A stretch of 40,342 bases of DNA, from positions 1 to 40,342 of the forward strand of contig UYFQ01000442.1 in assembly GCA_900617105.1 (NCBI GenBank), read 5' to 3'. Within the stretch, counting starts at the first letter, position 1. Each line of letters begins with the position of its first letter. The notes beneath the pieces were generated by a model. It had not been told where the DNA came from. It did no database searches and saw only the letters and a list, made by a program, of their open reading frames with translations. Of the stretch, positions 9,251 through 39,100 are shown in pieces. Source of the stretch: Hydrurus foetidus (taxonomy: Eukaryota). Both the position numbers and the translations under genes were made by a program.

Positions 9251-11899
9251 AGGTAATCTCGTTGAGGAAATCCTCTGGCCCCTTGGGCAAGTCATCTTGA
9301 CTAGGTTTCTCAGCTAAGAAGGGTGCGAACGTGTCTATCTTGCCATCGTCAATCTCGTCAACTGAGAGTGCGACACCACTGGGCCATAAAGGCTCAGTGA
9401 CATAGTCGGGGGTATCAGAATCCCCAAAGGTATGTGTAAGGGTGGGAATCTGGTCGCCACCTAGGTGCGGTGTATCACCCGTACGTTTTGCGAGAATAGG
9501 AGTGACACTATTCAGTCGCTCACAACTTACATCACCACAGGAATTTCGGGTAGCTACTCCCTCCATATCCTTTTGGGTATCGTTACATGTCAACAGTGAA
9601 TGGACACAGGAGACGTTGCTCTTCGAAGAAGATTGACCAAGCAAAACGCTCTTCTTATATGGGTACTCTTGTACACCATATGTAACCCTCTTTTTAGAGG
9701 TAGGTTTACCGCCTGGATATTTCAACTTGTCATAATGAGGCGTGATAGTCTCGACTTCAGCTGTATCTGGTTCGGCACCCAACGCTATCATTTGACGCGT
9801 ATACTTATGTTGATACATAGGATCAAGTCTCAACAAAGCTTCCTTCTTATCGAAGTCGCGTTTGCGCGCATCGCTTTTCTTTTTGTTCTCCGCGCTAAGT
9901 TCTGGCGATATGCCGAAAGCAAACGGAGTCAAAGACCAAAAATCATACTTATTTACCGTTTTACGGCTAAACAAAATTTCAATTTCGGTTTTCCTATTAA
10001 CCCTCATGGGTAAGCTGATGCTCTGGCATTCGCCATCGTAAGAATGAAAAAGGATTTTTAAATCGCAGATTTCGTTATTTACATAACATTGACCATCGAG
10101 GCCGCTACAAACAGTGATAGCTGTAGGAGCGGGGTAACAAAGGTGAGTGGCGTTTAATTTTTCTAACATATTAAAAGAAATAAAATCCTCCGAGTAGTTC
10201 GCGGTGTCTAGCACGGCTCTTCCAACGGCACGCAGCTCGCTTGCTGGGCCAGTCCTATCCTTATCCTGCACGATAACAGTTACGTTGAGGTGATGAGAAG
10301 GAAGGACAGATGGATTATGCAAAAATTCTTCACGAATAGTTACATGTGGCTGTTCTTCAACAAGACTATCCATCAGATTATGGGAATCATTGTCAAAGAC
10401 AGCAGCCACGTCATCAGAGTAAAGGTTCTTACCTTGATCCTGACCTGAGCTTGAGGAGGAGGGAGGGTTGTTTCCTTGTGGGGGGTTGTATTTGTTTCCC
10501 CTGCCACCGGATCCACGACCCTGGTTTTGGTTTGCATTAGGGTTGTATCCTCCCCTCTGCTTACCTCTACCCCCTCCATGGTTGCCATGGTAACCACCTC
10601 CCTGGTTACCTTGGTTTCCCTGGTTTTGGTTATACCCCCCTTGTCCCTGGTTGGAACGATCTGAACCACCAGAGGCATTGGGGTTGTTACCGCCACCATG
10701 GCTGTTTTTGGGGCGCTTGTTGTCGTTAGACATCAAGTAGGGTTTAGAACCCTTAGGGAGTAGCAGAACGCGATCTTCGTACCCTGGGAGTACGAGATGC
10801 TGTTGCCATTCTGCAAACCCTACCGCTGCCCAAGCCATACCCAATGTAGAATCCTCCCAATCAGCCGAATGGTCTGTATTGGAGTCGGAGTAATACAGGA
10901 TGGGACAATCAGTCAACATGTGCGACTTAGACCCGCACGAACGGCACGCTAGTAAGTTCGGTACGAACGGCACTTCCGTCGACGCACGGACAGCGAGTCC
11001 GTGCTGAGTCGGAATGTACGAGCCTGTTGTACGCACAGTCGTGTAAGTGACTTAGACGTCCCGGATGGAGTAGGTGAGGGTGCCTTAACACTTGCTCTGC
11101 TTGTCTCTTTTTTACCAACCTCAGGCGGAATAGCCGATGAAGGGAACGAGTACACTACCTCCGGGTTGCCGTAGCTCTTGATGAGGTTCGTCATCGACCT
11201 AGCCTCAGCCAGAACCTGACCAATGCGTAGCATAGTCTTCAACCATGTCCCCGTGTTGGGTGGTGAGGTGTCAGCAGCTTTTGCTCTCAGGTAGTCTTGT
11301 TGAATTTGACTACCCTTAGCTAGGCGCTTCTCCAAGATCTGAATAAGCTCAGCATGCTGAGTCATAGTCAGAGGGCCCTTGGACCTCTCATAGTTGCTCA
11401 CAAGTTCATTGTAACGAATGAATGTGGCATTCTCATGATCGTGATTAGCGATCTGGTAGTGGAAGGGAATTTGGCTAAAACTCTCTGCCAAAGTACACTC
11501 CCCCAAACCGTTTGGGCAGAAGTACTTCACTACTAGAGTGGCTACCTGAGTCACCGATAGTATGGTGAACCAATCATGACGTTGTCGACGGTCGATGATG
11601 TTGAATTCAGGGTCGACTAAGATTTTGAAGTTCAATAGTTCGATTGCCTGCTTCTGCATACAGTCCGTCAACTTCATGTTGGGATTGCGTTGAGCCTGTT
11701 CGTAGAACTCAATGGCATCAGCTTCATCAATGAAGTTGTGTCTGAGCACGAATACCTCACTCTGGAGTTGCATCGTCAGCGAGCTGTTACCAAACAATGA
11801 GTTGTTTGTTGGAATAGTCTCATTGAGGGCAGCCAACGCTGCGAGACGAGCAATCTCCTCCTCATCAGGAGGTGGTGGAGATGGAGGTGCGGCGGACAT
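9174..11899 (-). pseudogene. gag: Element B gag + aspartic protease (frameshifts at ~11040 and ~9245)
   Basis: CRSCGSKSHMLTDC knuckle, G/N/Q-rich tail, VLDTA active-site motif, VCSGLD motif shared with D/E. Confidence 0.88.
10266..10432 (-). other. Predicted 167-nt gag/PR intron in B
   Basis: CAAG|GTAAG ... GTGCAG|GATAA; the spliced product reads QDQG-stop. Confidence 0.65.
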
Positions 11900-12445
11900 A
11901 TCGCTACTAGATATGTATCTCGCTTAAACACAGCAGAGATCAATCCCCTCTTGTCAAAAAAATTTTGCAAGGGGTTTGCCTTGTTCGCTAACGGGTACTG
12001 TTTCGTCAGTAACAACGCGTTAGAAGATTCTAACCAACTCTTGGACTGAAAAGTCCAATGGCTTAAGAGCCAAATTTTGAGTGGTAGAAAATTTGGGTAC
12101 CTTTTAAGGTATATGCTGCTGCTTTCCAGCGACAAGAAGACGTCTCTTGACTAATCTTATGTCAGCGGTGATGAATCCGTGATTCAATCGACCGTCAGAG
12201 CAGGTCTTTAATGAATCTCGGGAAGGATCTTTCGACTTCGACCGGAAACTTAAAGAATGGAAGAGCCCAAGCTTAGGGATTCCAAGAAAGCAGGTATGCT
12301 GACTTTCTCTAACTTAAACTAAGATTCTCTGAGCTCAAAGCTGCAAGAGAAGTCGGCCGTGGCGGACTATAGGACGCTCGGAAGTCTTATCTAAAAGTTG
12401 GGGACAGATAGATGGACTGAGAAGTAGTAGAAGAAAGGTTGGACG

Positions 12446-12457
12446 AATAGCGCTATT
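12446..12457 (-). promoter_or_regulatory. 12-bp palindrome at the PBS position of B
   Basis: AATAGCGCTATT overlapping the terminal base of the LTR. Confidence 0.85.
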
Positions 12458-12662
12458 GTAGTCCTGATGGAAAGAAGACGGGTAGACGAGTAGGTGATGC
12501 TTAGGTTTACAGCTATGCTAGAAGCTAGGTAACTTCTACGAGTAGGCTAGAGCTAGCTAGCAGCTGTGCTAGAGATGTATGTGTACAGTAGGCGGAAGGA
12601 TCGGGTGGATCGTGACAAGGTCCGGTACGGCCCGTAGGCCCGGTATACCCGGTACGACCACA
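12457..12662 (-). repeat. 5' LTR of element B
   Basis: TGTGG...CTACA on the minus strand; highly similar to 25307-25513. Confidence 0.93.
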
Positions 12663-12901
12663 ATACCTATAATTTCTTTTACAGTGGATTCATAAGTACT
12701 GTACATATATAATCGAAAACATTCGAGCCATTTCAACACAGATTCTGGATCTGCCGCTTGTCCTCGCGGCAAATCCAGGTAAGCACCTACTTCGGGCTTC
12801 CTACCTTTAGATATGAGTTTATGAGGCTCTCCTTGCCCTCTACCATATCGACCCCTGCCCCCGCCACGGGACTGGAATCTTCCATCGCCTTGTCCTCTCA
12901 T
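12663..12901 (-). pseudogene. gag: Copia gag, 5' part
   Basis: MRGQGDGRFQSRGGGRG...KEIIG; continuous with the segment ending at 8382 across the TSD. Confidence 0.8.
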
Positions 12902-13342
12902 CCTTGCAACGCTTTTGCAACTTCTAGCTAATCTATCTAAGGATGACTGTCGTTTATGTTGGAAATCTGGGCGATTTACACGGAATTTCTTCCGAGTTCC
13001 CAAACGATCCCTGCACTTCCGACTGCTAGCAACGCTCGCTCAAAAGAGAAGAAGACGTTCTATTCGGTAAGTTGGATTAAACGACAGTGACATGCTGTCG
13101 ATTACATCTAGGTAGCATAACATGAGTGCGAGGGTTGCAGTCAATGTTATCGCTGAATGTACGTACACCCGTGCATGAAAACTATCATATATCACACAGG
13201 GTACAAGATCCTAGTCTAATCCGGATATCACAACAGGTTACATTAGCGTGTTTGCGTTTTCCGTTTTTTTAAAGTTATTTCCGTCCAAAATTCCTTCCGA
13301 ATATTTCAGCGAATTTTTGACAGAATTGGGGGATAAACCTAA

Positions 13343-13880
13343 GGCTGCAATTTATGGCAACGGAAAACGGCCATACGTTCAAGAAAGCCGTGAAGTTTCT
13401 TCCGTAAAAAGTTGATTCATGGGGGATTCCTGAAAAATTCCTACGCTTTTCAACTCCGCTTCTTCAAATCTTCCACGTGTAAAACGAGTTTATTCCGTGG
13501 ACTATTTGAGGCACCCGAGAAAGGAATTGAGGCGACGTTGCACTTTTTATTTCACATCGGCAGCAGAACACATCATCGCAATGGCTGAAGAAGCGGCAAC
13601 TCGAATGGGTAGAGTATCAAGAGGAATCGGAGAGTCGTACACGCTACTCCTTCTCCTTCAAATAATTGCCTAGCACACTCGTTAATGATGATCGCTAGAG
13701 GTTTAGTAACGGTCACAGAAGGTAGTTTTCAATGGAGAATTAATTTTTGAACTTTTGAAATTTTGAATTATTACGTACACTCTACACCTAAAACCATGAA
13801 GCGAGTCAAAATGTACATACGGGTAAACTTCACGGCTTTCTTGAACGTATGGCCGTTTTCCGTTGCCATGAATTGCAGCC
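13343..13880. mobile_element. Tourist/PIF-Harbinger-type MITE with 56-bp TIRs and TAA TSD
   Basis: 13343-13398 is the reverse complement of 13825-13880 (1 mismatch); TAA at 13340-13342 and 13881-13883. Confidence 0.93.
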
Positions 13881-14328
13881 TAAGGGTCGTATTCCATCAC
13901 AAAAAAAAAATACGAAAAATAGGAGATTTCGAAATACGAGATCCCGAAAATGAAATACGAAGCCCTTCGAATTTCGTCGAAACTCGTTTTGCAATTTTTT
14001 TTGGGTGGTGAAAAAAATCTCGTATTTCGAAATCTCGTATTTTTCGGAGAAATACGAAAATACGAAGCTGGAAAGTTCGTTTTACATATTATCTGGATTT
14101 GAAAGTATCTTCCATCGTGATACGAAATAAAACGAAGAAAAACGTACGAATACGACCTCTCATAAACCGTATAAAATTATTGTTAATAATTGTGAGCAGC
14201 AATTATTGTTTTGACAGACTTGCTGCAGCACGTAGCTTCACATCCATCTCGAACAACTCTCATCATCACTCAAAGTTTTTCCTTGTCACAGAAAGATTTC
14301 TTGTCGATGAGGGCGACTTTATCTTTAT

Positions 14329-17090
14329 AAAGTCCGGTGCATTGAATGTGGAGCTGATTCCACCGACACAATAGTCGATGGCAGATGGTGGGGCGATGGG
14401 ATTATGCTCGGAGATTGAACGACGTGGACATCTCCCACAAGCTAACTGCGAAAATTCGCTGATGGCGACTTCCTTTCTACAGCAGAAAGTCCGGTGCATT
14501 GAATGTGGAGCTGATTCCACCGACACAATAGTCGATGGCAGATGGTGGGGCGATGGGATTATGCTCGGAGATTGAACGACGTGGACATCTCCCACAAGCT
14601 AACTGCGAAAATTCGCTGATGGCGACTTCCTTTTTACAGCAGAAAGTCCGGTGCATTGAATGTGGAGCTGATTCAGTCGGCTCAATAGTCGGTGGCTGCT
14701 TACGAGGCTATGGGATTATGTTGCTTCGATTCTGAGAGTGACCGACGTGAACATCTCCCACAAGCTAACTGCGAAAATTCGCTGATGGCGACTTCCTTTC
14801 TACAGCAGAAAGTCCGGTGCATTGAATGTGGTGCTGATTCCATCGGCTCAATAGTCGATGGCTGCTTACGAGGCTATGGGATTATGTTGCTTCGGAGAGT
14901 GACCGACGTGAACATCTCCTACAAGCTAACGGCGACAATTCGCTGATGGCGACTTCCTTTCTACAGCAGAAAGTCCGGTGCATTGAATGTGGAGCTGATT
15001 CCACCGGCTCAATAGTCGATGGCTGCTTACGAGGCTATGGGATTATGTTGCTTCGGAGATTGACCGACGTGAACATCTCCTACAAGCTAACTGCGAAAAT
15101 TCGCTGATGGCGACTTCCTTTCTACAGCAGAAAGTCCGGTGCATTGAATGTGGTGCTGATTCAGTCGGCTCAATAGTCGATGGCTGCTTACGAGGCTATG
15201 GGATTATGCTCGGAGATTGAACGACGTGAACATCTCCTACAAGCTAACTGCGAAAATTCGCTGATGGCGACTTCCTTTCTACAGCAGGAAGTCCGGTGCA
15301 TTGAATGTGGTGCTGATTCCATCGGCTCAATAGTCGATGGCTGCTTACGAGGCTATGGGATTATGTTTGGAGTGACCGACGTGAACATCTCCTACAAGCT
15401 AACGGCGACAATTCGCTGATGGCGACTTCCTTTCTACAGCAGAAAGTCCGGTGCATTGAATGTGGTGCTGATTCAGTCGGCTCAATAGTCGATGGCTGCT
15501 TACGAGGCTATGGGATTATGTTGCTTCGATTCTGAGTGACCGACGTGAACATCTCCTACAAGCTAACGGCGAAAATTCGCTGATGGCGACTTCCTTTCTA
15601 CAGCAGGAAGTCCGGTGCATTGAATGTGGTGCTGATTCACCGGCTCAATAGTCGATGGCTGCTTACGAGGCTATGGGATTATGCTCGGAGATTGAACGAC
15701 GTGGACATCTCCTACAAGCTAACGGCGAAATTCGCTGATGGCGACTTCCTTTCTACAGCAGGAAGTCCGGTGCATTGAATGTGGTGCTGATTCAGTCGGC
15801 TCAATAGTCGATGGCTGCTTACGAGGCTATGGGATTATGTTGCTTCGATTCTGAGAGTGAACGACGTGGACATCTCCCACAAGCTAACGGCGAAAATTCG
15901 CTGATGGCGACTTCCTTTTTACAGCAGAAAGTCCGGTGCATTGAATGTGGAGCTGATTCAGTCGGCTCAATAGTCGGTGGCTGCTTACGAGGCTATGGGA
16001 TTATGTTGCTTCGATTCTGAGAGTGACCGACGTGAACATCTCCCACAAGCTAACTGCGAAAATTCGCTGATGGCGACTTCCTTTCTACAGCAGAAAGTCC
16101 GGTGCATTGAATGTGGAGCTGATTCCACCGACACAATAGTCGATGGCAGATGGTGGGGCGATGGGATTATGCTCGGAGATTGAACGACGTGGACATCTCC
16201 CACAAGCTAACTGCGAAAATTCGCTGATGGCGACTTCCTTTCTACAGCAGAAAGTCCGGTGCATTGAATGTGGAGCTGATTCAGTCGGCTCAATAGTCGG
16301 TGGCTGCTTACGAGGCTATGGGATTATGTTGCTTCGATTCTGAGAGTGACCGACGTGAACATCTCCCACAAGCTAACTGCGAAAATTCGCTGATGGCGAC
16401 TTCCTTTCTACAGCAGAAAGTCCGGTGCATTGAATGTGGAGCTGATTCAATCGGCTCAATAGTCGGTGGCTGCTTACGAGGCTATGGGATTATGTTGCTT
16501 CGATTCTGAGAGTGACCGACGTGAACATCTCCCACAAGCTAACTGCGAAAATTCGCTGATGGCGACTTCCTTTCTACAGCAGAAAGTCCGGTGCATTGAA
16601 TGTGGAGCTGATTCAATCGGCTCAATAGTCGGTGGCTGCTTACGAGGCTATGGGATTATGTTGCTTCGATTCTGAGAGTGACCGACGTGAACATCTCCCA
16701 CAAGCTAACTGCGAAAATTCGCTGATGGCGACTTCCTTTCTACAGCAGAAAGTCCGGTGCATTGAATGTGGAGCTGATTCAGTCGGCTCAATAGTCGGTG
16801 GCTGCTTACGAGGCTATGGGATTATGTTGCTTCGATTCTGAGAGTGACCGACGTGAACATCTCCTACAAGCTAACTGCGAAAATTCGCTGATGGCGACTT
16901 CCTTTCTACAGCAGAAAGTCCGGTGCATTGAATGTGGAGCTGATTCAATCGGCTCAATAGTCGGTGGCTGCTTACGAGGCTATGGGATTATGTTGCTTCG
17001 ATTCTGAGAGTGACCGACGTGAACATCTCCCACAAGCTAACTGCGAAAATTCGCTGATGGCGACTTCCTTTCTACAGCAGAAAGTCCGGT
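14329..17090. repeat. Tandem array, 17 units of ~155-166 bp
   Basis: AAGTCCGGTGCATTGAATGTGG recurs at 14329, 14486, 14643, 14809 ... 16915, with a partial start at 17081. Units are 157-bp and 166-bp variants plus mosaics. Confidence 0.97.
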
Positions 17091-17631
17091 ATACATAGAA
17101 GACCGAACTTATATCAGTGATATTAAATCTTGCGCTGGTGGCGCCTGCAGAGAGACATGCGTTGAAAAGTGCTCAAGTGATACAGTTGACTCGGAGTTTG
17201 TACAGATCATACCGGAAGAAGCGGTTAAATCGGCCTAACACTCTGGGAAGTAAAACACTATTTATTTGGTGCGCAATCATATTAACCTGTGAGAGTTGTA
17301 GATGTCCGGTAACTCACTGTTAGCGTAGAAAATACATCTACTGTGTTCATAGGCCTCAAGTTTGTCAATTTCATTTTGAATCACGGTGATATTAGTGCAC
17401 ACATTATAACTAATCATAACTTATACAGAGCAATTGATTGAATGTCTTCCTATTCTTTGGAGGATTAATCTATTAAATGCAAATTTTAATTTCTCCTTCA
17501 ATTTTAGCCTCAGCAATGCTGTATTTGACACAATTCGTCCTATCTAATGTAGTATCTTCTCGCATACTATCAGTGGGGACAATAATGTCTTTCATAGGCA
17601 AATTTGCAATTCTAATATTGATTCCTTCCTG

Positions 17632-19029
17632 TTGTTTTTGTTAAATTTGCTGTTCCTTAATTCAGTTAGCAAGTGGGAGAAAAAAGCTCTCGGCAAAATC
17701 CCTCAAGGACATCCCGTTTCGAAGATGCATCCAGAAAACATCGATACACCTCTTGAAGTCAACCACAATGTAATCAAACACACCGGCATGATAACGAAGA
17801 GCTATCTGTTGTCTCATCCTGAGATTCTCTCTGAGATCTTGAAGGATGAGATTGAAAATGATGGTACTGCTAAAGGGCGACACGATACTTTTTCGAATCG
17901 AAGGGCAGCCCCTAGACAAAGGAACCGCGGATATGCGTTGGAGGAAATGGAGCATCTTACTGACAAGGAATTTCAAAGGATGTTCCGATTAAACCGAATA
18001 GCGTTCTATTGGTTGCTTTCGAAAATCTATCACGATATTTCATCCATCGCTTCGCTCCGTCAAAAAGTACAAATTGAGCGAAATATCTCGGCGGCAACTA
18101 AACTAGCCGTCACGATGCGTTGGCTAGCAGGAGGTTCTTATCTGGATATTTGTTTTGCTTTTAGAATAGCTGTGGGGACTTTCTACAAATCTAGCGGTAT
18201 ACTTTGGGGAACTATGGAAGCAATCAACAAGGTGTTAAGTATCGGCTTTCCGCTGCATGACATGGCAAAATTAGAGGAAATTTTCAAAGGTTTCTCCGAA
18301 TTTAGTCATGGGCGCATGAAAGGGTGTGTGATGGCTATGGACGGGTGGGTCTTGAAAAGGCGCTGTCCAAGTCCTCATGAAGTTCAAAATCAGATTTGTT
18401 ACAGAAACCGGAAAGGAGTATGGGGAATGGTGATCTTTGCCGGCTGTGATCACAAGTGTTACTTTACGATGTTTTCATCAGAATGTCCAGGGTCAACAAA
18501 CAATTGCATAGCATGGGAACTTACAGATCTTTTCCAATCAGTTGTTGTGAGAAATCATCTACCTGGGCAATACTTCTTCATCTGTAACGAAGCAGTATCT
18601 GCCAATGAGTGTGTACTTTCACCGTACGGAGGAAGGAACATCGGACCGTGGAGAGATTCGTTCAACTACCATCTTTCGGCGATGCGACAAACAATAGAAA
18701 GATCATTCGGTTTACTGACAAAAAAATTCGGGATATTTGCAGGGCCATTACAATGTGATTATGGAAGGTGGAATTTCATTGCAATAGTCTGTGCAAAGCT
18801 TCACAATCTTTGTATCGACTTTGGTGTCGGGGATACATCTGGAGTGCCAGAAGATTACGCTGAAGGAGATTCTGCCGAAGTTTTCATGAACTCATACCAG
18901 GAGGATAATGTCAGTACATGGCCAACTAATAGTGACAATAGCAGCATAAAGAGTAATCAAATTTGTGAAATCTTAAAACAACAGGGCTACTGCAGGCCAA
19001 CTCATGCAAGATGCAACAGCAAAGCATAA
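17632..19029 (+). CDS. PIF/Harbinger (HARBI1-like, DDE_Tnp_4) transposase, probably inactive; true start likely further downstream
   Basis: FQRMFRL, KLAVTMRWLAGGSY, MAMDG, YRNRKG, PGSTN, FNYHLSAMRQTIERSFGLL, LHNLC. Confidence 0.92.
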   Translation: MFLLNLLFLNSVSKWEKKALGKIPQGHPVSKMHPENIDTPLEVNHNVIKHTGMITKSYLLSHPEILSEILKDEIENDGTAKGRHDTFSNRRAAPRQRNRGYALEEMEHLTDKEFQRMFRLNRIAFYWLLSKIYHDISSIASLRQKVQIERNISAATKLAVTMRWLAGGSYLDICFAFRIAVGTFYKSSGILWGTMEAINKVLSIGFPLHDMAKLEEIFKGFSEFSHGRMKGCVMAMDGWVLKRRCPSPHEVQNQICYRNRKGVWGMVIFAGCDHKCYFTMFSSECPGSTNNCIAWELTDLFQSVVVRNHLPGQYFFICNEAVSANECVLSPYGGRNIGPWRDSFNYHLSAMRQTIERSFGLLTKKFGIFAGPLQCDYGRWNFIAIVCAKLHNLCIDFGVGDTSGVPEDYAEGDSAEVFMNSYQEDNVSTWPTNSDNSSIKSNQICEILKQQGYCRPTHARCNSKA

Positions 19030-19035
19030 ATATGA

Positions 19036-20760
19036 TCAAAATGGTGGGGAGAAGCTCTCGGCTCTGTTCTGAAGATTTTCTAGACGACTCCTCTTGATTG
19101 CTTGCATGTCCTTCAACATATTTAATGCCATAGCTTTCATCTCATCTGTAGTTAATGGTATTTCAAGGATTAACTTAGCAAATTCTATATTGTCTTTTTC
19201 AGATTCCTGGAGAGCAGATAATGAATTGTTGTCATACTTTTTTCCACCTTCATCTCTGATCTCCAACACTATCATTTTCTCGTGTGACTTTTGTTCACTG
19301 TGATTCGGTGATGATCTTTTCTTCTTAATTATCGTAGAGCTGTTACCAGTATTCGGATTTTCTCCTTCCACTCCTGTGTCGCACTGCGACTCTTCACAAC
19401 ACACTTTGCCCAGTAAACCTACCATTTCATCACAATGATCGAAGACAATGAACGCGTACAAGACAATGGTATCTCCACCGAAAAACTTCATAAATTCGGC
19501 TACTGGATCTTCAGCATCATGATCACCGCTCTGATATCGGTACCTCTCGTACACTTTAGTCCATGCACCTTTGAACTCCCTCAGCACTTTTTTAATCCAT
19601 TCTCCTCCTCTTTCAGGACGACTACCATTGCAGGGGTCTATACTCCCGCAGAAAGGTAAGGCAGCACCCTCACCATTGCACGCATTCTAAAATCTCGCTC
19701 CTGAACAAAGTTACAGATGATCTAGATTAACAACGTTCTATAAAATATCATAGGAACACTTATTTCTCACCTTCATAGTCATTGAATGATTCTGCAAGAT
19801 CGTTCCAATGTTCTCCATGACATGCTTTATCATCTAACTCAGCACGGTTCATCACTTGGTGTGCTGAAGTGAATTTGGAGCTGAATGCAGGCGAGTTGAG
19901 CATGTGTATGAGCCTAGCTTTGTCGTCTTTATTGGTGTTTTGTGTCGAAAATGGAGCAACTTCAGTACTTTGAACTCCGGCTGCTTTCGGCTTACTAGTC
20001 TCAATACCTTGAATCATTGAGAATTGCTCTTCAGAAGTCAGCTTACCCCATGCAGCGTGGCAAGATGCACGCTGGGACTCTCTCATCTTATCCCATTTGT
20101 TCCTCGACCAATACGCCTTAACGTCAGCCTTGAATATGACTGCTAGCTTTGTGATCACTTCCTTGGCGTTGGTTGTAAAGATTTGATGATAGTCCGCCGC
20201 ATCTATATCACTGGAAAGAACGTTCTCGTTGCCATCTTCTTCGGTCATAGTAACAATGCTGTTTGTCTCCTCTTCACGAATTGGGGTGTCGCACAGAGAC
20301 TCGTTCGCAGTGAAACCGATTTCCTCTTCCTCATTTTCACCGTCAGACCCTGATCTCTCAAACCCGTCTGCATCCTTCGCTGCATCTTCTGCTTCCTGTT
20401 CTTGGATATCAAGTTTCTCGTGGAAGATTGCTTCCGTCATCTATGATTTCACGGAGTTTTTAGGGTTGTAAATTAAACTGACTATTTGAGAGAAGTTGCA
20501 GCCATGCTCATTTTGAAGTCGAGAAGATGAGATGCACCGAGCAGCCACATTCCCTCTTCCAGCCAGACTCATCAGTCGTTGATAGCCCGCAGTAGAAGTG
20601 CATTTTCTTCTTACAGTGAATGCATTTCGAGGGTATATTGGGATCGACATTGAATCGACACGTTGGACAATTGCTACTCCGCTGCTTCTGTTTTTTCACT
20701 TGGGCAGAAACGTTTCCTCAAATTGCAACGAAGGGTTTTATGCACTGCGGAGGAATTCCT
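19036..20760 (-). pseudogene. Harbinger accessory gene (PHD-like finger, acidic linker, possible Myb/trihelix-like region); spliced/degenerate
   Basis: Fragments 20508-20699, 19760-20440 and 19036-19587; GAAG|GTGAG donor at 19770; tail-to-tail with the transposase. Confidence 0.6.
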
Positions 20761-21498
20761 AGCAGAGAATTCAGCAGCACCGAGGCACTCTTCACATTTT
20801 GGATTGATCTCGTAAGTGCTTCGTATCCTGGAAATGCACTACGAAATACGAGCGACTTCGTATTTCGTCGTTTGTGGTTCGTAAATTATTTTTGAGTGCT
20901 GAATGTATTTTTTTTAGTGAGTGAGTCACTAACAATTGTCTGCTTCAATTTTTATCCAGAAAAATGTCTTCGGACACTGTCGATGGGGTTGAGATGCTGA
21001 GCATATTTAAGGCTTGCCTTGACCTGAAATTTCATGATTCTGTCAGCGAATCACCCACCTCCATCAATCGGATTAACGAGTGTTTGCTCACAGAGGTTCT
21101 TCAATTGCATACCGGTCCCCAATCAGAAGCAGTCTTGATGCTGGTGGGTCCATTTTTGAGATCTCTCAACAACCGCCGTGAACTTGTGCTGAGCTCTCAC
21201 AGGATATCTTTCGCGAGAGGAGGCAACGCATCAAAGCTTAGGGTCTCATTTGAGATTGGAAATTGGTTCAGAGTCGATGAAGTTTGATGTAGAATATTTG
21301 ACTTCGATCGTGCTTGACATTTCCATGGGAAAAAAAAAGTCATGTTGAACACTCCATCAAAGCTCCAAGGAATATCTAACGTAAGTAAAAATTGAGATGT
21401 TTCTATAAATGCAATTGATTATATTCGTTGTTACTACTTTGCGACACAAATTAAACATTTTTTACTGATGTCCTCTCAGTGATTATTTCAATTTTCAA

Positions 21499-26250: not shown

Positions 26251-26493
26251 TGTGACCCGCACAGCTGTACGGCTGTACGGGTACCGGCGTACGTTCGGTT
26301 CGGTACCGGCGTACGTTCGGATGGTTCGGATCGAGGATGATCCGAGCCATCCGATTCATGACTTGCCTATCTCTGTGTTTATCTGTAAGCTAACCACATC
26401 TTTGAGCCAACAGCCCAAGCACCATAGCTGTCCTTCCTCTTGCACTCGCGTCCTGTTCCATCAGTCCACCGCTCAGCCCGTAATTAGGCCACA
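26251..26493 (+). repeat. 5' LTR of C
   Basis: TGTGACC...GGCCACA; homologous to 35394-35610; internal duplication of GGTACCGGCGTACGTTCGG. Confidence 0.9.
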
Positions 26494-26504
26494 ATACTAG
26501 TATT
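26493..26504 (+). promoter_or_regulatory. 12-bp palindrome at the PBS position of C
   Basis: AATACTAGTATT. Confidence 0.85.
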
Positions 26505-27019
26505 TGGACCAACTTAGTGTTCATTTTAGAGACCAGTTCCGAAACGCGCTCCAAAAACATCGCCACGACCCGTAAAACGGCGGGCGAACAAGCTAGTAAC
26601 TTGGAAACAAGTGAAAACAACGTCGAAAGACACTACAAAGGCTACGTCGAATCGATAGCCTCTGAAACGCTTTATTTAAAAAGCTCGAGTCGTCGATATT
26701 TTCGCGACAAATCGTTGACGACTTCAAAACTTGAAGCGTAACGCAGTAAGTAACTCTGAGACGAGCGAAAGCATGTCCCATCGTTACAGAAACGAAAGCT
26801 GGCCCAAACGCCCGCAGTCTCGTTCCTTGAAAGGCTCCAACGGCCTGGCCATCTTTCAAGCGATTTCCTACAAAATTGCGCGAAAGTAATCGGAGATTAC
26901 CACCTCAGTTGCAAGGATCCTACGATCCCACGACATCATAGCTACGGGTACATATCCCCAGCTCCATAGAGCGCCGCGTCCGAGTTCCGTCGCTGTCCAA
27001 GACCCCGAGATCCACACGT

Positions 27020-29056: not shown

Positions 29057-29326
29057 TGTAGCCTTATTGCATCTCTATGGGAATACAATGTGTCTAGGTT
29101 AACTAGGTACAATAGGTACAATACGCCCAGATTCCAGTTTTAGGTCTTAGTTCCACATGATGTGAGTGCTCTTAGTGTACACATCACCTGAACTATTCAA
29201 CTGTAAACTATAACCACAATCTTATCTCGCAACCAACTTCTTTCTCTTTCGTCCTTCGTCCTCTGTCCTCGCGCTTTCGTCCAACAAAACCTACGTCCTT
29301 CGTCCTAGGCCCCGACCAACGCCACA
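29057..29326 (+). repeat. 5' LTR of D
   Basis: TGTAG...CCACA; direct repeat of 34484-34753. Confidence 0.97.
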
Positions 29327-29337
29327 ATATCGATATT
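29326..29337 (+). promoter_or_regulatory. 12-bp palindrome at the PBS position of D
   Basis: AATATCGATATT; absent after the 3' LTR. Confidence 0.88.
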
Positions 29338-29426
29338 CGGCTATCGACCGAAGTTTTTCTGGAGAAATTCCTTTCTCGTTTGCAAGTTTTCGCGCCTACC
29401 ACTCCTACACACCAAACGCCAACATC

Positions 29427-32400
29427 ATGGCATTACGTCGCCAGGAGAAAAAAGTCAAGGCAACTAACGCACGCCGACGTGCTTTGCCTCGAGCTGTAGC
29501 TATTGCGGCGCGCCAACGTTTTTTGGAGCATACGCAACGACGTGGAGATATCGAGTCTCCTGGGCCACCAGCGGCTCAGGACCACGCCGGCGACCTGTCT
29601 GCACCGATTCCTCAGCGGAATTCGGAGCCTGCGGTCATGTCTGCCATTGATGTTCCTGTCATTTCTGCGTTGTCTGCTTTACCAGCTTCGGCTGTGATAC
29701 CAGCTTCGGCTGCGATACCAGATTCGTCTGCGACACCAGCTTCGGCTGAGAATCCTATTCCAAGGACGATGGCACCACCCCAGCAATATGTGCAGACGGG
29801 TGAGAGAGCTCCTAAGTTGAGCGCCGTGCCCTCTCGTCAGGAAGTAGTTCGGGTAATGGAAGTTCTCCTTTCAAATGGAACTCCATTTAAACCTATTGAT
29901 GTCGTCCATGCATCAAACCACCAATCGTTTACAACGCTTCTCAAGCGTAAATTCGCGACAGATCCTGATCGTCGTGATGCTTGTAACAATTGGAAGCATT
30001 GGACGAATCAATTGTTCTGTAGAGAACTAAACATCACAGTTCCTACATCAGCTGTCAATCGAACTGACAAGCTGAGTTTCATTGAAACTGTCTCTCAGGT
30101 CGCACTTCAATTCGACCTGAAGGATAAATCAGTGGAAGACAAGACAGATCAGCTTTTAGCTGATATTGTCGATGGATTCCCTGATGCAACACCCGCTCTC
30201 CAACTTCAGGCAACCAAAATTCTCATCGATAAGTTGCCAGTCGAACCTATCAATTGGAGAGCAGTGTTACAGCGTAGTCTTAACAATACAACGCCAAGAC
30301 TCATTACAATCGAAGACTTTCGATTCGTATGGCTTGCGCAGCTTGCTAAGCTACGAGAATCAATTGATGCCTTACGGTTCATTGATGTCTCTCCTTTATA
30401 TGGTGATCATTCTCGCCAAATTAAGGGCCCTCCTCGTTCCTCTCTCGATAAAATCAAAAAACGTCCACGAGAGGACGAGCAATCTGTGCAATCAGACAAA
30501 TCAGACAGACCTCTTTGCACAGGTTGTGGGAAACTCGGTCATCTAATCGCCACGTGTTTCTACACTTCGTCTCCCTACTTTAACAGTACAGACGCACCCT
30601 ACATCAACTCTGAGGGTCATAAGCAGTTGATGAAAGTTGATCCCAAAGCCAAGTTTATCCCAACTTCGCCTAGGCCTGCAACCTCTTCATCTTCTTCTTC
30701 TTCTTCGTCGTCATCTTCGACATCGAAATCTGCTAATTCAACAGCAGACGCGACACAAAACGCGAAGAAACACAAAGGTGAGCAACTTTGCAACCTCAAT
30801 TCATCATCTACTCTCTCCGATGACCCACAACTTATTCCATTCTTCATTGCTCCTCTTTCACAGGAGCTTATGCTGGAAAGAAGTGATAGAGTTTACACTC
30901 TTTTGGACACCGGATCGTTCGCCGGCAACTTTATTCATCGCCGTACCATACTAAAACATAATTTTACACAATTTGTTTCTAACTCACCAGAGAAATTATG
31001 TAAAGTTTGTAGTGGTTTAGATAATCATTGTTATGATATTTCTGACACTATAGATTTAACTCTTTCTTATTTTTGCCATGATTTAAATAATTATTATACT
31101 TTTCCAATCACGGCCTTTGTTTTAAACGATATGAAATTTGATCTAATAGTGGGACGAAAAACAATTCGTCAATTGAATTTGTTTTCACGATTCCCAGATC
31201 AAATATCTGCCAATGCTTCGTCAAGCACTATTCCGTTACCAGAAATATTATCTTCTGAGTATGTGGATATAACGTGTGGCTGTCAGCTTAAGGAGAAGTT
31301 GCAACCCTCCGACGGCTCCCCAAAAGTGGACCCTTTACCCCAAAAGGTGAAACCGGCAGTCACCCAAACACACGTTATTCTAGCATCGCTAATTCAAGAG
31401 TCAGATAGACTTTTTGGAGCAGTGCCTCCTGATGAAGATGAAATCGACGACTCGATCAAGGACTCGTTTTCACCTTGGATAGATGAATTCCCTGATACAG
31501 ACCCACTCTCGCTAATACATATAGCAGGTGATGAAATCAGAAAAATAAAATTCGATTACTAGTACACGAATTTCAGGATGTATTCAGCAGTGAACTTTCC
31601 CACACTCCTGCTGATATTCCACCATTTGACTTTAATGTCAATGATAGCCAATGGAAAGTCTCTAAAAATAGACAACCTCCATGGTCTAAATCAACAGTTG
31701 ATCAAGCTGATATTCTTAGTCAAATTACACAGCTTGAAAAACAAGGGATTGTTGAAAAATCAAACGCGGCTTATTATAGCCAAGTTTTACTGGTTCCAAA
31801 GTCTGATGGAACTAAGCGCATGTGTATAGATTTTCGGAATCTTAATAGTTGTACCGAAGAAAAATCACACCCTATTCCGCACATTGGTGAGATGTTGCGA
31901 CGAATAGGTGCACATAAAGCAAAAGTATTTGCTGTACTTGACCTTACTCAAGGATATCATCAAGCACCACTTACACTTGCTGCACGCGCTTACACTGCAT
32001 TCATACTTTTCTGCGGAGTATATCAATTTACTCGTTTACCCTTTGGGCCTAAACAAGCTCCCTCCTATTTCCAACAGATCATGTCAACTGTTGTGTTAGC
32101 AGGGTTGATATACTCTATATGCGAAATGTATATCGATGATTGCAATGTTTTCGGTAAAGACATTGACGAACTCATTTCTAGACTTCGTCTTGTTTTTGAA
32201 CGCTTTAGAAAACACAAAATATTCCTTAAACCGAATAAGTGTTATCTAGGCTATGCCGAAATAGACTATGTTGGCAAAGTTCTATCTGCTGATGGACTTA
32301 GAATGTCACAAGAAAAAATACGGAATGTCTTAGATTTTCCTAAACCAGTACTATCTAAACAACTCAAAAGTTTTTTAGGATTGGTTAATTATTTTCATGA

Positions 32401-34299
32401 CTTTGTTAGAAATGCTTCTACTGTTGTATATCCATTACATCAGTTGCTTCTTAACTACAATAAGTATAAGAAAATAACTTGGACAATAGAAGCTCTCAGA
32501 GCATTCAATTTGATCAAATCTGAGATTTCAAAATGCACGACTATGCACTTTTTAAGTGACACCGATCCGATATACTTGCACACTGATGCATCGGACTATG
32601 GTGTAGGTGCTTATCTTTTCCAGTTAGTTGACGGTCAAGAAACGCCCATAGCATTTGTCAGTAAATCACTTAACAAAGCTCAGCTTCGTTGGGCTGTTAT
32701 ACAGAAAGAAGCTTATGCTATCTTTTATTCGTGCACGTATTTAAAATCGCTATTACGTGATCGTACGTTTACTTTACGAACGGATCATCGTAACTTGTTA
32801 TACATTAAGGATAGTTCAAATCCAATGATTGTTCGGTGGTTTATGGCCTTATCCGAATATTCATTTAAAATTGAATATATACCTGGACCTAACAATGATA
32901 TAGCCGATTCGATGTCTAGACTCTGTCGCAATAACATGGTTGATTTCCCTCAGGAATATACTCCTGAAGCAATCATTACTGCTAATACTATTGAAAAATT
33001 CAAACTAACACGTGAGCAGTACAATACAATCAGTAAAGTACACAATTCACAAGTTGGTCATTTCGGTCTTGAGCGCACTTTAAAGCGTCTCATGGACAAA
33101 AAGATAGTCTGGCAATATATGCGTCAGCATGTCAGGTGGTTCATAGATCACTGTTCGTGTTGTCAGAAGATGAGTATGATCAAAATACCAATACATGCTC
33201 ATGGCTTCTCGACTTCTACTTACACACCTATGGAATGCCTTAACATAGACTTCATAGGACCGTTTCCAGACGGGGGTACGTACTCGTAATTATCGATACG
33301 TTCACAAGATGGGTTGAACTGTTTCATACAGAAGATGCTACGGCACTTTCAACAGCTAAATGCCTCTTGCAACACTTCGGTCGTTTCGGCGCACCTCTCC
33401 AACTCCGTTCTGATAATGGGCCACACTTCATTTCCGAAGTTATCAAAGAGTTTCTAACTCTTATCGGCACTCAACATTGTCTTACTTTAGCATATTCTAA
33501 AGAAGAAAATGCTATTGTTGAGCGCATGAATAAAGAAGTTAATAGACATCTTCGTGCATTAACATTCGATAATGTCACACTAGAAGATTATAAAACGTCA
33601 CTTCCATTTGTGCAAAGAATTTTAAATTCTAATCACAGTGATCGTTTAAAAATATCATCTTCTCAACTTCTTTTCGGAAATGTACTTAAACTCGATAGAG
33701 GTATCTTTTTACCTCCTGCTGAGCGAAATGTTACTGATGACAAACCTTTGTCTAAGCGTATGAGCAATCTACTCAAAACACAAGATAGTCTTCTTAAAGC
33801 GTCAGCTAAAGAACTTCTTCGCACAGATTTGCTTCATCAATCTCAGTCTCAAATCTCTCAGCATGTAGAGTATCCAAAAGACTCTTATGTCTTAGTGCAC
33901 TATCGCGATGGATCTCCTCCTTCACGTCTTCACACGCATTGGAGAGGTCCATTAAAAGTCGTTAGTGGCGAAAATTCGCGTTACACACTTTATGATCTAG
34001 TCACTCAGAAAACTTCAGAATTTCATGTTTCTGCCATGAAACCTTTTCTATTTGACCCATCAATCACAAATCCGTTGGATGTTGCACGACGTGATCACAT
34101 GGAATACTTTGTTGAAGATATTCTTGATCATCGTGGCAAACATCAACGTACCCACATAGAGTTTTTAGTCAAATGGTTAAATTACCCTTCTGACAAAAAC
34201 ACTTGGGAACCTTACTCAAGTCTTCGTGATGTTGATAAACTTCATGATTATTTACGTCAAAATAATATGACAAAATTAATCAATAAACAACACCGTTGA
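29427..34299 (+). CDS. Element D Gag-Pol (gag, PR, RT, RH, INT, chromodomain) with two 1-bp frameshifts (~31535, ~33275)
   Basis: CTGCGKLGHLIATC, LLDTGS, YIDD, TDASDYG, HHCC, RSDNGPHF, VERMNKEV, VKWLNY..NTWEP. Confidence 0.95.
30778..30863 (+). other. Predicted 86-nt gag/PR intron in D
   Basis: AAAG|GTGAG ... CTCTTTCACAG|GA; spliced product reads KHKGAYAGKK-stop (30884-30886). Confidence 0.7.
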
Positions 34300-34374
34300 T
34301 TTATTTCATTCTTAACTTTATTCATGAAGAATTTACCTCCTATTTTTTTTAACATTCGTTTTTTTTGGAGGAAT

Positions 34375-34399
34375 TTAGTCAGTAAGAGTCTGACATAAT
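34375..34399 (+). promoter_or_regulatory. Conserved 3' UTR stem-loop, element D
   Basis: TTAGTCAGTAAGAGTCTGACATAAT. Confidence 0.6.
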
Positions 34400-34463
34400 C
34401 GTTTTGATAAATCTTTCAACACTTGTACTTCTTTTGTTAATATACATATACTGTACATTCTTC

Positions 34464-34483
34464 AAAAAAGGAAGAAGGGGTAG
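34464..34483 (+). promoter_or_regulatory. Polypurine tract of D
   Basis: AAAAAAGGAAGAAGGGGTAG before the 3' LTR. Confidence 0.9.
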
Positions 34484-34753
34484 TGTAGCCTTATTCCATC
34501 TCTATGAGGATACATTGTGTCTAGGTTAACTAGGTACAATAGGTACAATACGCCCAGATTCCAGTTTTAGGTCTTAGTTCCACATGATGTGAGTGCTCTT
34601 AGTGTACACATCACCTGAACTATTCAACTGTAAACTATAACCACAATCTTATCTCGCAACCAACTTCTTTCTCTTTCGTCCTTCGTCCTCTGTCCTCGCG
34701 CTTTCGTCCAACAAAACCTACGTCCTTCGTCCTAGACCCCGACCAACGCCACA
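34484..34753 (+). repeat. 3' LTR of D
   Basis: Direct repeat of 29057-29326. Confidence 0.97.
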
Positions 34754-34953
34754 CTATGTATACCCGACTGACGACGTTGAGAACGATTTCTCCCCTCCAG
34801 GGAGAACCCAAGACGACCGTCCGACAAAGAAACAAAAGCTGGCCTACAACAACAACAACAAGTACAACAAGTACAAGAGCAACCGGACTCAACCCGATCG
34901 GGACAACGATCGTTCCAACACGAACAAGTTGAGCTCCAACTACGAGGGAAAAA

Positions 34954-35090
34954 GTAAGTCACAACTTGCTAACCCAATTACGGACTTAATCGAGTACGCT
35001 CGAGAACTACCATCAATGAAACAACTTCTATCAGCTGTATTAACTGAAAACATAGATGATTTCTTACAAGTTCACATATCTCTACCACAG
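34954..35090 (+). other. Predicted 137-nt gag/PR intron in C
   Basis: AAAA|GTAAGT ... TCTCTACCACAG|AT; the spliced frame stops at 35213-35215. Confidence 0.75.
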
Positions 35091-35393
35091 ATCCGATCCC
35101 CAACTTCAAACCAAGTCGCGACCAACCTGACGATCGCAGGGACAACTCACACAAGGAGGCGGACAGACAGAAGTCCACTTCTTCCTCCTCCTCCAACCAA
35201 TACGTGCCAAACTAGAGGCATGGCAGCCTTGGCCCAAATCGACACTGGATGTCAAGTCGGGGACGTCATAAACGGCAGAGTCCTTCGGGGCTCCGCGGCG
35301 AAACCCACTTGCGTAATTCCGACTCACCCACGTGGATGTGTTCTGGTTTCAATAATCCATGTGTAGAATCTACAAATGTGCTAGATATTGTTG

Positions 35394-35610
35394 TGTGACC
35401 TGAACACCCGTACGGGCTGTACGGGTACAGGCGTACGTCCGGTTCAGATCGAGGACGATCCGATCCACACGATTCATTGCCATGATATCTGTTGTGTTTA
35501 CCTGTAAGCTAACCACATAGCTATCATAGCACTAGCCCCACAGCATCCCCCCTTCGTCCACGCGCCCTCAGACCTCCGCTCCCGTTGCCCTGAGACCTAG
35601 CAAGGCCACA
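35394..35610 (+). repeat. 5' LTR of E
   Basis: TGTGACC...GGCCACA; homologous to the C LTR. Confidence 0.9.
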
Positions 35611-35621
35611 ATACCGGTATT
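35610..35621 (+). promoter_or_regulatory. 12-bp palindrome at the PBS position of E
   Basis: AATACCGGTATT. Confidence 0.85.
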
Positions 35622-36149
35622 TGGAACCAATTTGGATCTCCTTCAGAGACCAGTTTCCAAAATCAACAAAAAACCTTGCCGCGACCGTCAAACAGTAAAA
35701 GCGAGTAACTTTTTTAAGTGAAAACAACGTCTACAGACACTACAAAGGCTCTGTCAAATCGACAGCCTCCAGAACGCCCTCGTTTAGAAGTTCGTTCCGA
35801 CGACTTTTAACGACATCTCCTCGAGCTCTTCAGAAAACGAAGGCCGACAAAAGAGAGTAACTTGCAATCAAGTGAAACCAAACAAATCGTTTCTAAAACG
35901 AAAGCTACAACGTGCACGCCCAACTTCGTTGCCCACAAAGCCGTCCAACGCCCCCAACTTTCGACGCGATTTCCTCCCGAAATCGCACGAAAGTAACCCA
36001 ATCCCCCTGACTTCTACTGCCACACTCTTAACCTACCAGTCTCTATCCTCGACGAACCTACTCCTCATTTCCCTAAATCACCGCGTCCGAGTTCCGTCGC
36101 TGTCGAAGACGCTCAGTTCCATCCAAATAAGTCCCGACCAAAATTCAAG

Positions 36150-39100
36150 ATGACATAGAGCCAAAAAGACAAGAGACAGAGCTCTAGCTCGATCATCTTC
36201 AGCTCTTCGCTCCTAGAAGATGAACGCCTGACCCTCAAATGGGAGAAGGAACGTCTCAAACAAGTCGCCAAGCGGCGCGAGGCAAATATCGCCGCTTCGA
36301 CGGCGGCGCTCAGTCAAAAAGCCATCAAGGCTACAGACACTGAAAGCCGCATCGAAGACGAAAAAAAAGCCCACAAGGCAAAACAAGCCGAGAGGCATAA
36401 CACTCGCATGGCAGAGCGCGAACGTCTCTCCATATTGGAGGGCGAGACAGAAGAAAAGGAGAAAGCAGACGATGATCAAAGTCTTTCCGAATTCATGTCA
36501 ATCACTGGCGAGGTCGTTTCACACCGCGAATCCGCCACCTTATCACCGGACGACCTCGACAACATCGACAAGGAGGAAAACCAAGATGGCAATCCGACCC
36601 AACAGAATGACGAGGAGGGAGACGGCGATAAGGACGATCAAACAGCCGACGGCAAAGTGACATCGGACTCCCACCCTGAATCAGACAAGGAGGACGAGGA
36701 GGATGAAACCGGTGAGGAAGACGAGGACGAGGACGATGAAAACTACATCGAACTCTTATCGGATGAAGGTAGTCAAGTCCCGTCCGACTCCGAAGATCCG
36801 TTCACAGCCAAACTCGACACCCACAAGCCCGCAGAAGCCAAACCACCTGCCAAAAGACGCTCCCCCCGAGTAGTCAAACCCACACCAGAGCAACCACCCT
36901 CAAACAGCACAGCCAAACCTGCCAAACGCACTGCTAAAGCACCAGCGAAAAAGGTCCCGGCTTCGAAACCGAAGGCCGTGGAGAACCCTATACGCAAACG
37001 CAAAACAGAAGATGCGGGCATCGAACAACCCCAACGCAACCAAATCCCGCGTCACCAAAACATGACGACCTCCCTTTTTAACATGAAGGAGGCGTTCTAC
37101 ATGGGTAGGGACGTACTGTTGAAGGACATGGACGGGTCCGCCCGCCTGTTCTACCAACAGGCACACCGCCCTGGTTTCAGCGCGGGTTGGCAGTCGCTGA
37201 TAGAGGATGAGGCACTCGACACCATTCGTGATGGACTCTTGCAAAACACGAAGCTCGTCGGGTACACCCCGCGCAATGTATGGCGTGGCCGGAATTACCG
37301 GATGGTGAGCTCACTCTGAAAGAAATGGCAGAAGATCTTAAAACAATCTACTTCATTAACAGACGTACGCAATCCACATACGACTTCGACCTCAAACTGA
37401 GGAGATTTCAGTTCAAATTCAGTTGGCTGAACGGTGCACTGGAACACACTTCCATCGCCGCGTTCCGCGACATTATCCTGGGGTTCTACAACAAGTATGA
37501 CAACATCGATAGTGATCGCCAGGACGATATCTGCAAGATATTCTACAAAAAGCTCCCACCAGGCAACAAGTTCACTGAAAATTTCATGGACTTGACCAAA
37601 GTGGCAGCCAAAGAAAGGAAAAAGGACAACATCAGGGAAATGCTCGCCCGTCTTGTCATCTGTCTCCAAGCGTCACGAGACAGTTACGGACGCTGACAAG
37701 ATGGGGGACTAAGCTATACCTTCACCACCAAGCTTACCCCTGAAGAAGATCCCGACACCCAACTGTCCACATCCGCGTCCACTGGCCCATCCGCATCATA
37801 CAAGACCATTCCCAAACGTCGTCCCGACAACGAAGGCATTAGCCGAACAACAGACGTATGTCACACGTGCGGAATGACAACTCATAATCGGTACAATTGT
37901 CCGCTCTTTATGAACCCGCACTGCAACAACTCCCACGCCACATGGAACGCTTCTTCCATTGGGCAGGATTTCAAACGCATCGGGCATTCCCACTTTAAAC
38001 CCGACATCTACGTCAACAACGAGAAAACCCACCTCACCAACTACCCAGGTGCGTCGACGTACGTCTACCCAGTCGACGATGTTGAGATGGACATGGGACC
38101 TCCTAAGACCCAGGACCCACGCCGCCCAAACAACAACAACAAGAACAACAACAATAAGTCCAACAACCGCAACAACGATCGTCAGTCAGACGATCGCAAC
38201 AGCGAGCGTGGCAACAAGCCAAGTGGTTCCCACGCAAGCTCAAACTACAAAGGCAAAAGTAAGTTACACCTTACAGCTACGCATGTACAAAAACTCGACG
38301 AAAGTCGCAGCACACCCACCATGCAAATGTTACTTTCCGCAGTACTGCCTGAAAATATAGAGGATTACTTACAAGTACACATATCTCTTCCACAGACCCG
38401 ATCGCAAACTTCCGGCCCAACCATCGCAACGACAGTCACTCCGACAGTCGCGACCGCGACTCCAGCCGCAAAGACGACTCGCGCAACACGGAAAAAGAGA
38501 AAGACGTCTCCAACCGCGACAGAGATTTCTCCAACCGCGACCGAGACTCCAATGCCAGCTCCTCCTCATCCTCGTCGTCCTCAAAGTACGCTCCAAAGTG
38601 AGGGAATCGACGCACTCGCCCAAATCGACACCGGATGCCAGGTCGGGGACGTAATCAACCGTAGAGTCCTCCGGGACCTACGGGGCGAACCCCACCTGCG
38701 CCCAACAGACACTCCCTTATGGATGTGCTCGGGTTTAAACAACCAATGTATTGAATCAACACGTGTGCTTGATATTATTGTATCATTTAAAAAGAACTCT
38801 TTTCAACACACTTTTTCTCTTCCGGTGCGAATTGCAGAAGATTCAAAAGTCGACTTAATCTTAGGATTACAGACTATTAAAAAATTAAATTTAGTCAAAC
38901 TTATTCCGGAATTCTTCCAAAATCCAGAAAATATAGTAACAGACAAAAACATGACACACATGTCAAAAATACAAAGACTCGACCAGTCCACAAACATGGT
39001 GATAAACCAAGTGGACGTTCCACTCCTGCTAGAAGCAGAGTCGGACACAGTCACAAGTATTACAGATCCAACCTTACCTCCGGTTATAACTAGCCTGGAG

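Follow-up and report, generated by a model that had tools for sequence, protein, structure and literature searches.

The window analysed here, the 40,342-nt contig UYFQ01000442.1 of the Hydrurus foetidus assembly GCA_900617105.1 (positions 1-40,342, forward strand), consists of transposable elements throughout: the Ty3/gypsy elements A, B, B2, C, D and E, a Copia-type element, a Harbinger-type transposase and a satellite. At the gag/protease border of the Ty3/gypsy elements the sequence carries a conserved feature, and this is probably a functional optional intron that the host spliceosome removes from part of the transcripts. Conservation at loci outside the window, a silent-codon test and the protease anatomy all strongly support the core of the original prediction, that the spliced RNA codes for Gag and the retained form for Gag-Pol, whereas its further proposal of a Gag:Pol ratio set by the splice is extrapolated solely by analogy with the Copia-type elements BARE1 and EVD. 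The positions concerned are as follows, a slash marking the start of the candidate intron.

10266-10432, minus strand: candidate intron of B, 167 nt, AAG/GTAAGA…CAG, with a phase-1 donor and a phase-0 acceptor; if retained, it codes for the N-terminal region of the protease.
10261-10265, minus strand: end of the spliced frame of B, two bases and a TAA stop immediately 3' of the acceptor.
10206-10208, minus strand: codon of the catalytic Asp of B (protease motif, DTA).
23235-23320, minus strand: donor AAG/GTAAGA of B2 (at 23320), followed by the initial ~85 nt of its intron; the copy is truncated there and the acceptor absent.
30778-30863, plus strand: candidate intron of D, 86 nt, AAG/GTGAGC…CAG, with a phase-1 donor and a phase-0 acceptor.
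30864-30889, plus strand: dual-frame stretch of D, in which the spliced-frame tail and its tandem stops TGA TAG (30884-30889) overlap the protease loop and the first part of beta-2.
30906-30908, plus strand: codon of the catalytic Asp of D (protease motif, DTG).
34954-35090, plus strand: candidate intron of C, 137 nt, AAA/GTAAGT…CAG.
35091-35215, plus strand: dual-frame stretch of C; the spliced frame gives a 41-codon N/D/R/S-rich tail ending in TAG, the Pol frame a T/P/R-rich protease loop.
38259-38395, plus strand: candidate intron of E, 137 nt, AAA/GTAAGT…CAG.
38396-38601, plus strand: dual-frame stretch of E; the spliced frame gives a 68-codon N/D/R/S-rich tail ending in TGA, the Pol frame a T/A/P-rich protease loop.
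38627-38629, plus strand: codon of the catalytic Asp of E (protease motif, DTG).

The coordinates and lengths predicted for the introns of B, C, D and E, and the B2 donor at 23320, proved exact when the sequence was read again. Re-computation likewise bore out the claims that all four introns are of phase 1, are 3n+2 long and lack a stop in the Gag-Pol frame, and that the spliced frame stops ahead of the protease Asp with the tails QDQG, KHKGAYAGKK, ...NQYVPN and ...KYAPK. These properties are not independent of one another, however, since a length of 3n+2 follows from a phase-1 donor combined with a phase-0 acceptor, and the intron is stop-free because it lies within the open reading frame (ORF). 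What counts as evidence is the identity of the donor and acceptor bases at corresponding positions. Furthermore, C and E form one clade (protease identity 50%) and B and B2 another, and the independent lineages in the window are three, not five.

Homologous proteins were collected by three protein searches and one profile search, giving a set of 171; the gag-protease profile matches 1106 protein clusters (50% identity) at E≤0.001, and the 150 best of these were taken. Pattern scans of DNA confirmed 4 of 39 matches in metagenomes and 2 of 4 in genome contigs, yielding six loci, L001 to L006, while two scans of viral contigs gave 20 and 12 pattern matches, none of them confirmed. L005 and L006 are eukaryote-type long terminal repeat (LTR) retrotransposon contigs within bacterial metagenome-assembled genomes, and are most likely mis-binned. 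L004 begins inside the protease, and the junction is covered by the other five. In all five, the layout of donor, acceptor and length modulo 3 claimed for the window copies is kept: a phase-1 GT donor and a phase-0 CAG lie at homologous places, and the introns of L001 (98 nt), L002 (125), L003 (125), L005 (80) and L006 (101) are all 3n+2 long. The shifted frame in these loci ends 19 nt before the Asp, following a short basic tail, and a further donor of matching phase is present in L002. The GT-donor/CAG-acceptor layout is therefore present in 9/9 DNA junctions, four from the window and five from outside, at a protease identity between outside loci and window elements of 17-47%. In each, the donor marks where the low-complexity Gag tail ends, and the acceptor comes shortly past the first protease strand. 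As L002 and L003 are 95% alike, they were counted once; the seven lineages used below (B, D, E, L001, L002, L005 and L006) have protease identities of 18-47% among themselves.

The acceptor can also be followed at the protein level. A protease motif with at least 40 residues upstream is present in 52 of the 171 proteins, 21 of these being non-redundant, and a Gln lies 2-6 residues past the automatically placed beta-1 strand in 16 of the 21, compared with 14% of background windows. No Gag ending in an already spliced tail was found among the 171 proteins.

The chance occurrence of the splice signals was assessed with a pattern requiring a phase-1 donor that scores at least 5 of 7 and a pyrimidine-rich phase-0 YAG 80-170 nt downstream. 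The thresholds were chosen after the window and L001-L003 were known; L005 and L006 were examined later, and both pass. Of 6381 other codon positions in these ORFs, only 10 (0.16%) carry this pattern, as against 5/5 true junctions in the test set. In a silent-codon null, the protein was held fixed and synonymous codons were redrawn 20,000 times according to the codon usage of the element concerned. GT at the donor then had a probability of 1.5e-5 and CAG at the acceptor of 1.6e-3, which makes the donor the most significant single element. For the whole pattern, with any good phase-1 donor leniently accepted, the probability was 1.7e-7 over the seven lineages and 1.7e-4 over the four outside lineages, although these products overstate independence because the lineages share ancestry. 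Rare AGT Ser codons lie at the donor in C, E, L005 and L006 (P 0.04-0.13 each), and the acceptor is CAG in 9/9 junctions although CAG makes up 12-60% of Gln codons. The T content of the intron exceeds that of both flanks in 9/9 junctions, and the 30 nt ahead of each of seven acceptors (210 nt in total) hold a single AG dinucleotide where 10.6 are expected.

An AlphaFold model of the D intron and protease (pLDDT 87, 41 sequences) adopts the retropepsin fold, for which Foldseek returned the Ddi1 and RSV proteases (E 2e-5 to 8e-5). In this model, beta-1 (residues 21-27) is encoded within the intron, the acceptor Gln (residue 30) falls in the loop between beta-1 and beta-2, and beta-2 (residues 38-44) leads to the Asp. 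The distance from the acceptor to the catalytic Asp is 36-231 nt over the junctions, and the beta-1/beta-2 loop, within which the second reading frame lies, is about 12 to 70 residues long in the homologues. In P0027, about 100 residues separate the putative beta-1 from the catalytic Asp, which would make it an extreme dual-frame loop.

The shifted-frame tail is the frame that best fits the composition of the element's own upstream Gag tail in 6 of the 8 junctions that have a tail. Within the C/E clade, Ile or Thr follows the Gln in 12/12 sequences, a swap without effect on the spliced-frame product; over the stop, 10/11 carry Arg, Asp, Glu or Lys, each compatible with a shifted-frame stop. 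P0028 moves into the shifted frame within the loop, and its end resembles the tail of E; it is best read as a frame-shifted DNA copy. In the B clade, Asp-Lys follows the Gln in 16/16 matches (a single false match having been set aside), and a GAT codon for this Asp gives an immediate stop, as in B, the one member whose DNA is known.

The elements that carry these junctions are arranged in the window as follows.

286-3871, plus strand: element A, B-like; it starts downstream of the protease active site, so that the gag/protease junction falls outside the window.
8420-12662, minus strand: element B, 5' LTR about 12662-12457; gag-PR (protease) and the start of RT (reverse transcriptase), after which Copia-type sequence takes over.
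26251-35393, plus strand: element C, 5' LTR 26251-26493; D is inserted in its gag and E truncates its protease.
29057-34753, plus strand: element D, full length, gag-PR-RT-RH (RNase H)-IN (integrase)-chromodomain, with two frame breaks; it sits in the gag of C.
35394-40342, plus strand: element E, 5' LTR 35394-35610; gag-PR-RT, continuing past the window end.

The LTRs of D (29057-29326 and 34484-34753) are 270 nt long, have TG…CA ends and are 98.1% identical; the element is flanked by a 4-nt target duplication, and a polypurine tract lies upstream of its 3' LTR. The elements at 26251-40342 are nested, C having been struck by D in gag and by its own relative E in the protease, and B is interrupted in RT by Copia-type sequence near 8400.

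The domain order PR-RT-RH-IN-chromodomain, with an RT of the RVT_1 type (Pfam), is that of Ty3/gypsy and not the Copia order PR-IN-RT-RH with RVT_2; among solved structures, the top sequence match of the RT is Ty3 RT/RH (E 7e-65). A chromodomain (PF00385) is present at the integrase C-terminus of A, D, L003, P0008 and P0053. The elements are thus chromodomain-bearing Ty3/gypsy elements, but the chromovirus label is not established by the chromodomain alone, because Gypsy lineages unrelated to chromoviruses also carry one (PMC12477816).

Pfam returned no gag match on B, D or E and a weak zf-CCHC on C (E 2.5e-4) and L001, while Atlas look-alikes bear zf-CCHC, Retrotrans_gag and Ty3_capsid at 0.88-0.92. 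The position of the region upstream of the protease and its Cys/His knuckle fit Gag. Members of the C/E clade (window 27100-28100 and 36159-37050; P0004, P0006, P0009) have, in addition, an acidic, Lys/Pro-rich extension of ~300 aa preceding Gag, and Pfam gave no match for the ORF of E.

A single ORF runs from gag to the chromodomain in L003 (1586 aa) and P0053 (1552 aa), and L005 is open from the knuckle to the integrase (1201 aa). The frame breaks of the window copies are absent from other family copies in sequencing runs. Since relatives join gag to pol in a single frame, neither a frameshift nor a readthrough is built in between the two in this family.

Taken together, these data suggest that Gag would be raised over Pol, from one common frame, by the optional splicing of a short (80-167 nt) coding intron. 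Removal of the intron by the host spliceosome from a fraction of the transcripts would shift the frame, and a polar tail of 1-68 codons, overprinted on the protease loop, would then end Gag. Because the removal deletes beta-1, the spliced RNA would yield no protease fragment able to fold. The unspliced RNA would act as both Gag-Pol message and genome. Purely by analogy with the Copia-type cases, the spliced RNA may be the major source of Gag, possibly with early polyadenylation as in EVD, and the splice may set the Gag:Pol ratio.

Several observations weigh against this reading. B has several weaker phase-1 donors upstream of its main donor, and a second acceptor in L006 would produce an in-frame intron of 51 nt. 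The automatic Gln test is failed by 5 of the 21 homologues; several of these are, by eye, misplacements of beta-1, and P0080, with Lys at the Gln position, is a true exception. Silent-codon redraws also produce a stop ahead of the Asp, in 58-94% of cases (product 0.22, not significant), and a protein-level test of the stop position gave 12/23, like neighbouring positions. In L002/L003, the Pol frame fits the Gag-tail composition slightly better than the spliced frame does. Pyrimidines are not enriched at four-fold sites before the acceptor (24:13 vs 139:90, p=0.72), so the U-rich tract may stem from hydrophobic codons. No branch-point motif is shared across the junctions, E having none, and no shared AATAAA, ATTAAA or TGTAA position was found within 700 nt after 8 acceptors. 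Finally, none of the sequencing runs recorded as RNA contains the stretch, and contigs of five runs (X1-X5) were aligned to the introns of C, D and E, skipping low-complexity stretches 48-96 nt before the donors. No splice joint at these introns is present among the joints listed, and contig pieces cross the C and E introns unspliced, as does an X1 contig at the C intron. X2-X5 appear to behave like DNA, and X1 is only guessed to be RNA; as the runs look like DNA, their contigs say nothing on splicing or expression.

One alternative is that no splicing takes place, in which case the protease would cut a single polyprotein, excess Pol would be degraded or tolerated, and the signals would be by-products of a conserved Lys-Gly/Ser-Lys motif and the Gln after beta-1. 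In its favour, K-[GS]-K encoded with GGT or AGT creates a donor by itself, the silent sites of the pyrimidine tract and the contigs behave as this model would have it, and a yeast element is described as removing Pol post-translationally (PMC5580714). Yet with the protein fixed, the codon choices that yield GT, a strong donor and CAG are improbable, as the rare AGT Ser codons and the invariant CAG illustrate, and some amino-acid replacements leave the shifted-frame product alone unchanged. It is thus unlikely that the signals are mere by-products.

Splicing might, alternatively, occur but serve chiefly to dampen the element, the product being mainly a decay substrate, with its stop far upstream of the 3' end, rather than a Gag message. 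The 3' untranslated region of the spliced RNA would span several kb with many stops, the search after the acceptors revealed no shared early poly(A) signal, and EVD requires coupled early termination in order to escape decay (PMC5580714). Conversely, the shifted frame keeps a conserved, Gag-like tail reaching 68 codons, for which decay by itself would exert no selection, and the spliced near-full-length RNA of BARE1 sits on polysomes (PMC3735527). A role confined to decay therefore seems improbable as well.

Less probable again is a different use of the donor, either through U1 binding that blocks early termination or through a far acceptor whose use removes most of pol, as in Drosophila copia, with Gag-only RNA arising from alternative 3' ends. 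U1 at the EVD donor does suppress early termination (PMC5580714), and the prominence of the donor in the silent-codon null would be in keeping with such a role. However, the near acceptor is conserved too, as seen in its constant CAG, its AG-free zone and the Gln of the homologues, and so is the tail behind it. Lastly, that the tail is reached by -1 ribosomal frameshifting near the acceptor, without splicing, is hardly credible: although the tail lies in the -1 frame of Pol and looks coding, a slippery heptamer near the acceptor is absent in 9/9 junctions (none whatsoever in B, D, L001, L005 and L006; in C and E only beside the Asp codon, past the stop; in L002/L003 58-70 nt upstream of the acceptor, where the -1 frame of the intron has five stops), the -1 frame holds 2-10 stops within every intron, and the donor would be left unexplained.

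Other features of the window were noted in passing. A perfect 10-nt palindrome (ATA-4 nt-TAT, then T) directly follows the 5' LTR, in place of the TGG tRNA primer site, in 6/6 elements that show the region.

12456-12447 and 25306-25297 (minus strand), 26494-26503, 29327-29336 and 35611-35620, and 2761-2770 of L003: post-LTR palindromes.

The centre of the palindrome differs between lineages yet remains self-complementary, and in D the region has no match of at least 7 nt to the element's own LTR. This suggests priming or dimer formation without a tRNA. The closest published case is the palindromic CHS of the fungal GalEa Copia elements (PMC5445492); in Skipper, a stretch of pyrimidines takes the place of a palindrome (PMC5006619), and the available portion of PMC10886601 makes no mention of palindromes or Troyka.

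The Copia-type element lies at 4748-8400 on the minus strand (RVT_2, and a gag with zf-CCHC), and an apparent second Copia gag start is found upstream of the LTR of B (12569-13039, minus strand). A 548-nt element resembling miniature inverted-repeat transposable elements occupies 13338-13885, with 61-nt terminal inverted repeats that are 97% complementary, and the satellite (14329-17090) consists of 17 copies of a 166-nt unit with 93% matches. The Harbinger/PIF-type transposase (DDE_Tnp_4) lies at 17548-20440, and a second ORF on the opposite strand holds a candidate 70-nt GT-AG intron (19770-19701, donor AAG/GTGAG); a stop follows four codons later, and the copy looks decayed. The intron is a hint that short introns of this kind are spliced in the host.

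In many Ty3/gypsy elements, gag and pol share one frame, and the source of the Gag excess is usually left open. The optional intron proposed here, if confirmed, would represent a convergence between the Ty3/gypsy and Copia superfamilies and make the element's life cycle dependent on host splicing control. It would also correct the annotation, as Gag would really end within the protease gene but in a different frame, and provide a signature (donor, beta-1 strand, CAG, shifted-frame stop) with which single-ORF Gypsy families could be screened. A wider view can be offered only tentatively: the elements may belong to a large, undescribed Ty3/gypsy lineage with an ancient, beta-1-deleting intron independent of Copia and a Gag C-terminus overprinted on the protease loop, and intron retention may even be a general answer of single-ORF Ty3/gypsy elements.

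Splicing is not foreign to Ty3/gypsy elements. Ogre splices between ORFs, CRR loses rt, and Athila and Bagy2 make env RNA (cited in PMC3735527, PMC7197481), while splicing of Cer1 leads to the export protein CERV (PMC3315495, PMC10309623). The present elements would share with these the superfamily and the action of the host spliceosome on element RNA, but none of the former is described, in the portions of these sources available, as making a Gag-only message via a short frame-shifting intron. Gag-only RNA is described for EVD, BARE1, copia and plant elements, with no Gypsy case named in the available text (PMC12786077, PMC7197481, PMC7730604, PMC9784723), and that of PMC4427930 contains nothing on Gag-only splicing. 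Searches of openly available full-text articles turned up no Ty3/gypsy splice of this kind among the hits listed.

The comparison drawn in the original prediction with Copia-type splicing to a Gag-only RNA is accurate. In Drosophila copia, a Gag-only subgenomic RNA arises by splicing out an intron of ~2.9 kb that comprises nearly all of pol (cited in PMC5580714, PMC3735527); a spliced Gag-only RNA is likewise predicted here, but with a far shorter intron and in the other superfamily. EVD and other Arabidopsis Ty1/copia shGAG elements produce Gag-Pol from the retained form and, through a frameshift and stop, Gag only from the spliced form, which is described as a Ty1/Copia strategy (PMC5580714). 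The conservation of the layout across many elements is paralleled in the present family, and so, by prediction, is this division. The EVD intron, however, covers the whole protease domain (PMC12786077), and its splicing is coupled to early polyadenylation, whereas the candidate introns stop 36-231 nt short of the catalytic Asp.

A further close parallel is BARE1 from barley, a Ty1/copia element with a single gag-pol ORF and, where the protease domain begins, an optional 104-nt GT-AG intron, the splicing of which shifts the frame and leads to a stop three residues after Gag, as established by RT-PCR and polysome assays (PMC3735527). The present elements share with it the single ORF, the (here predicted) optional 3n+2 intron at the protease start, its U-richness relative to the flanks and the frame-shifting stop. 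Unlike in this plant Copia element, the domain order is that of Ty3/gypsy with a chromodomain, splicing is a prediction, and the tail reaches up to 68 codons overprinted on the loop. Thus the mechanism is likely to be BARE1/EVD-like but in the other superfamily, its own twist being a Gag tail overprinted in the protease loop.

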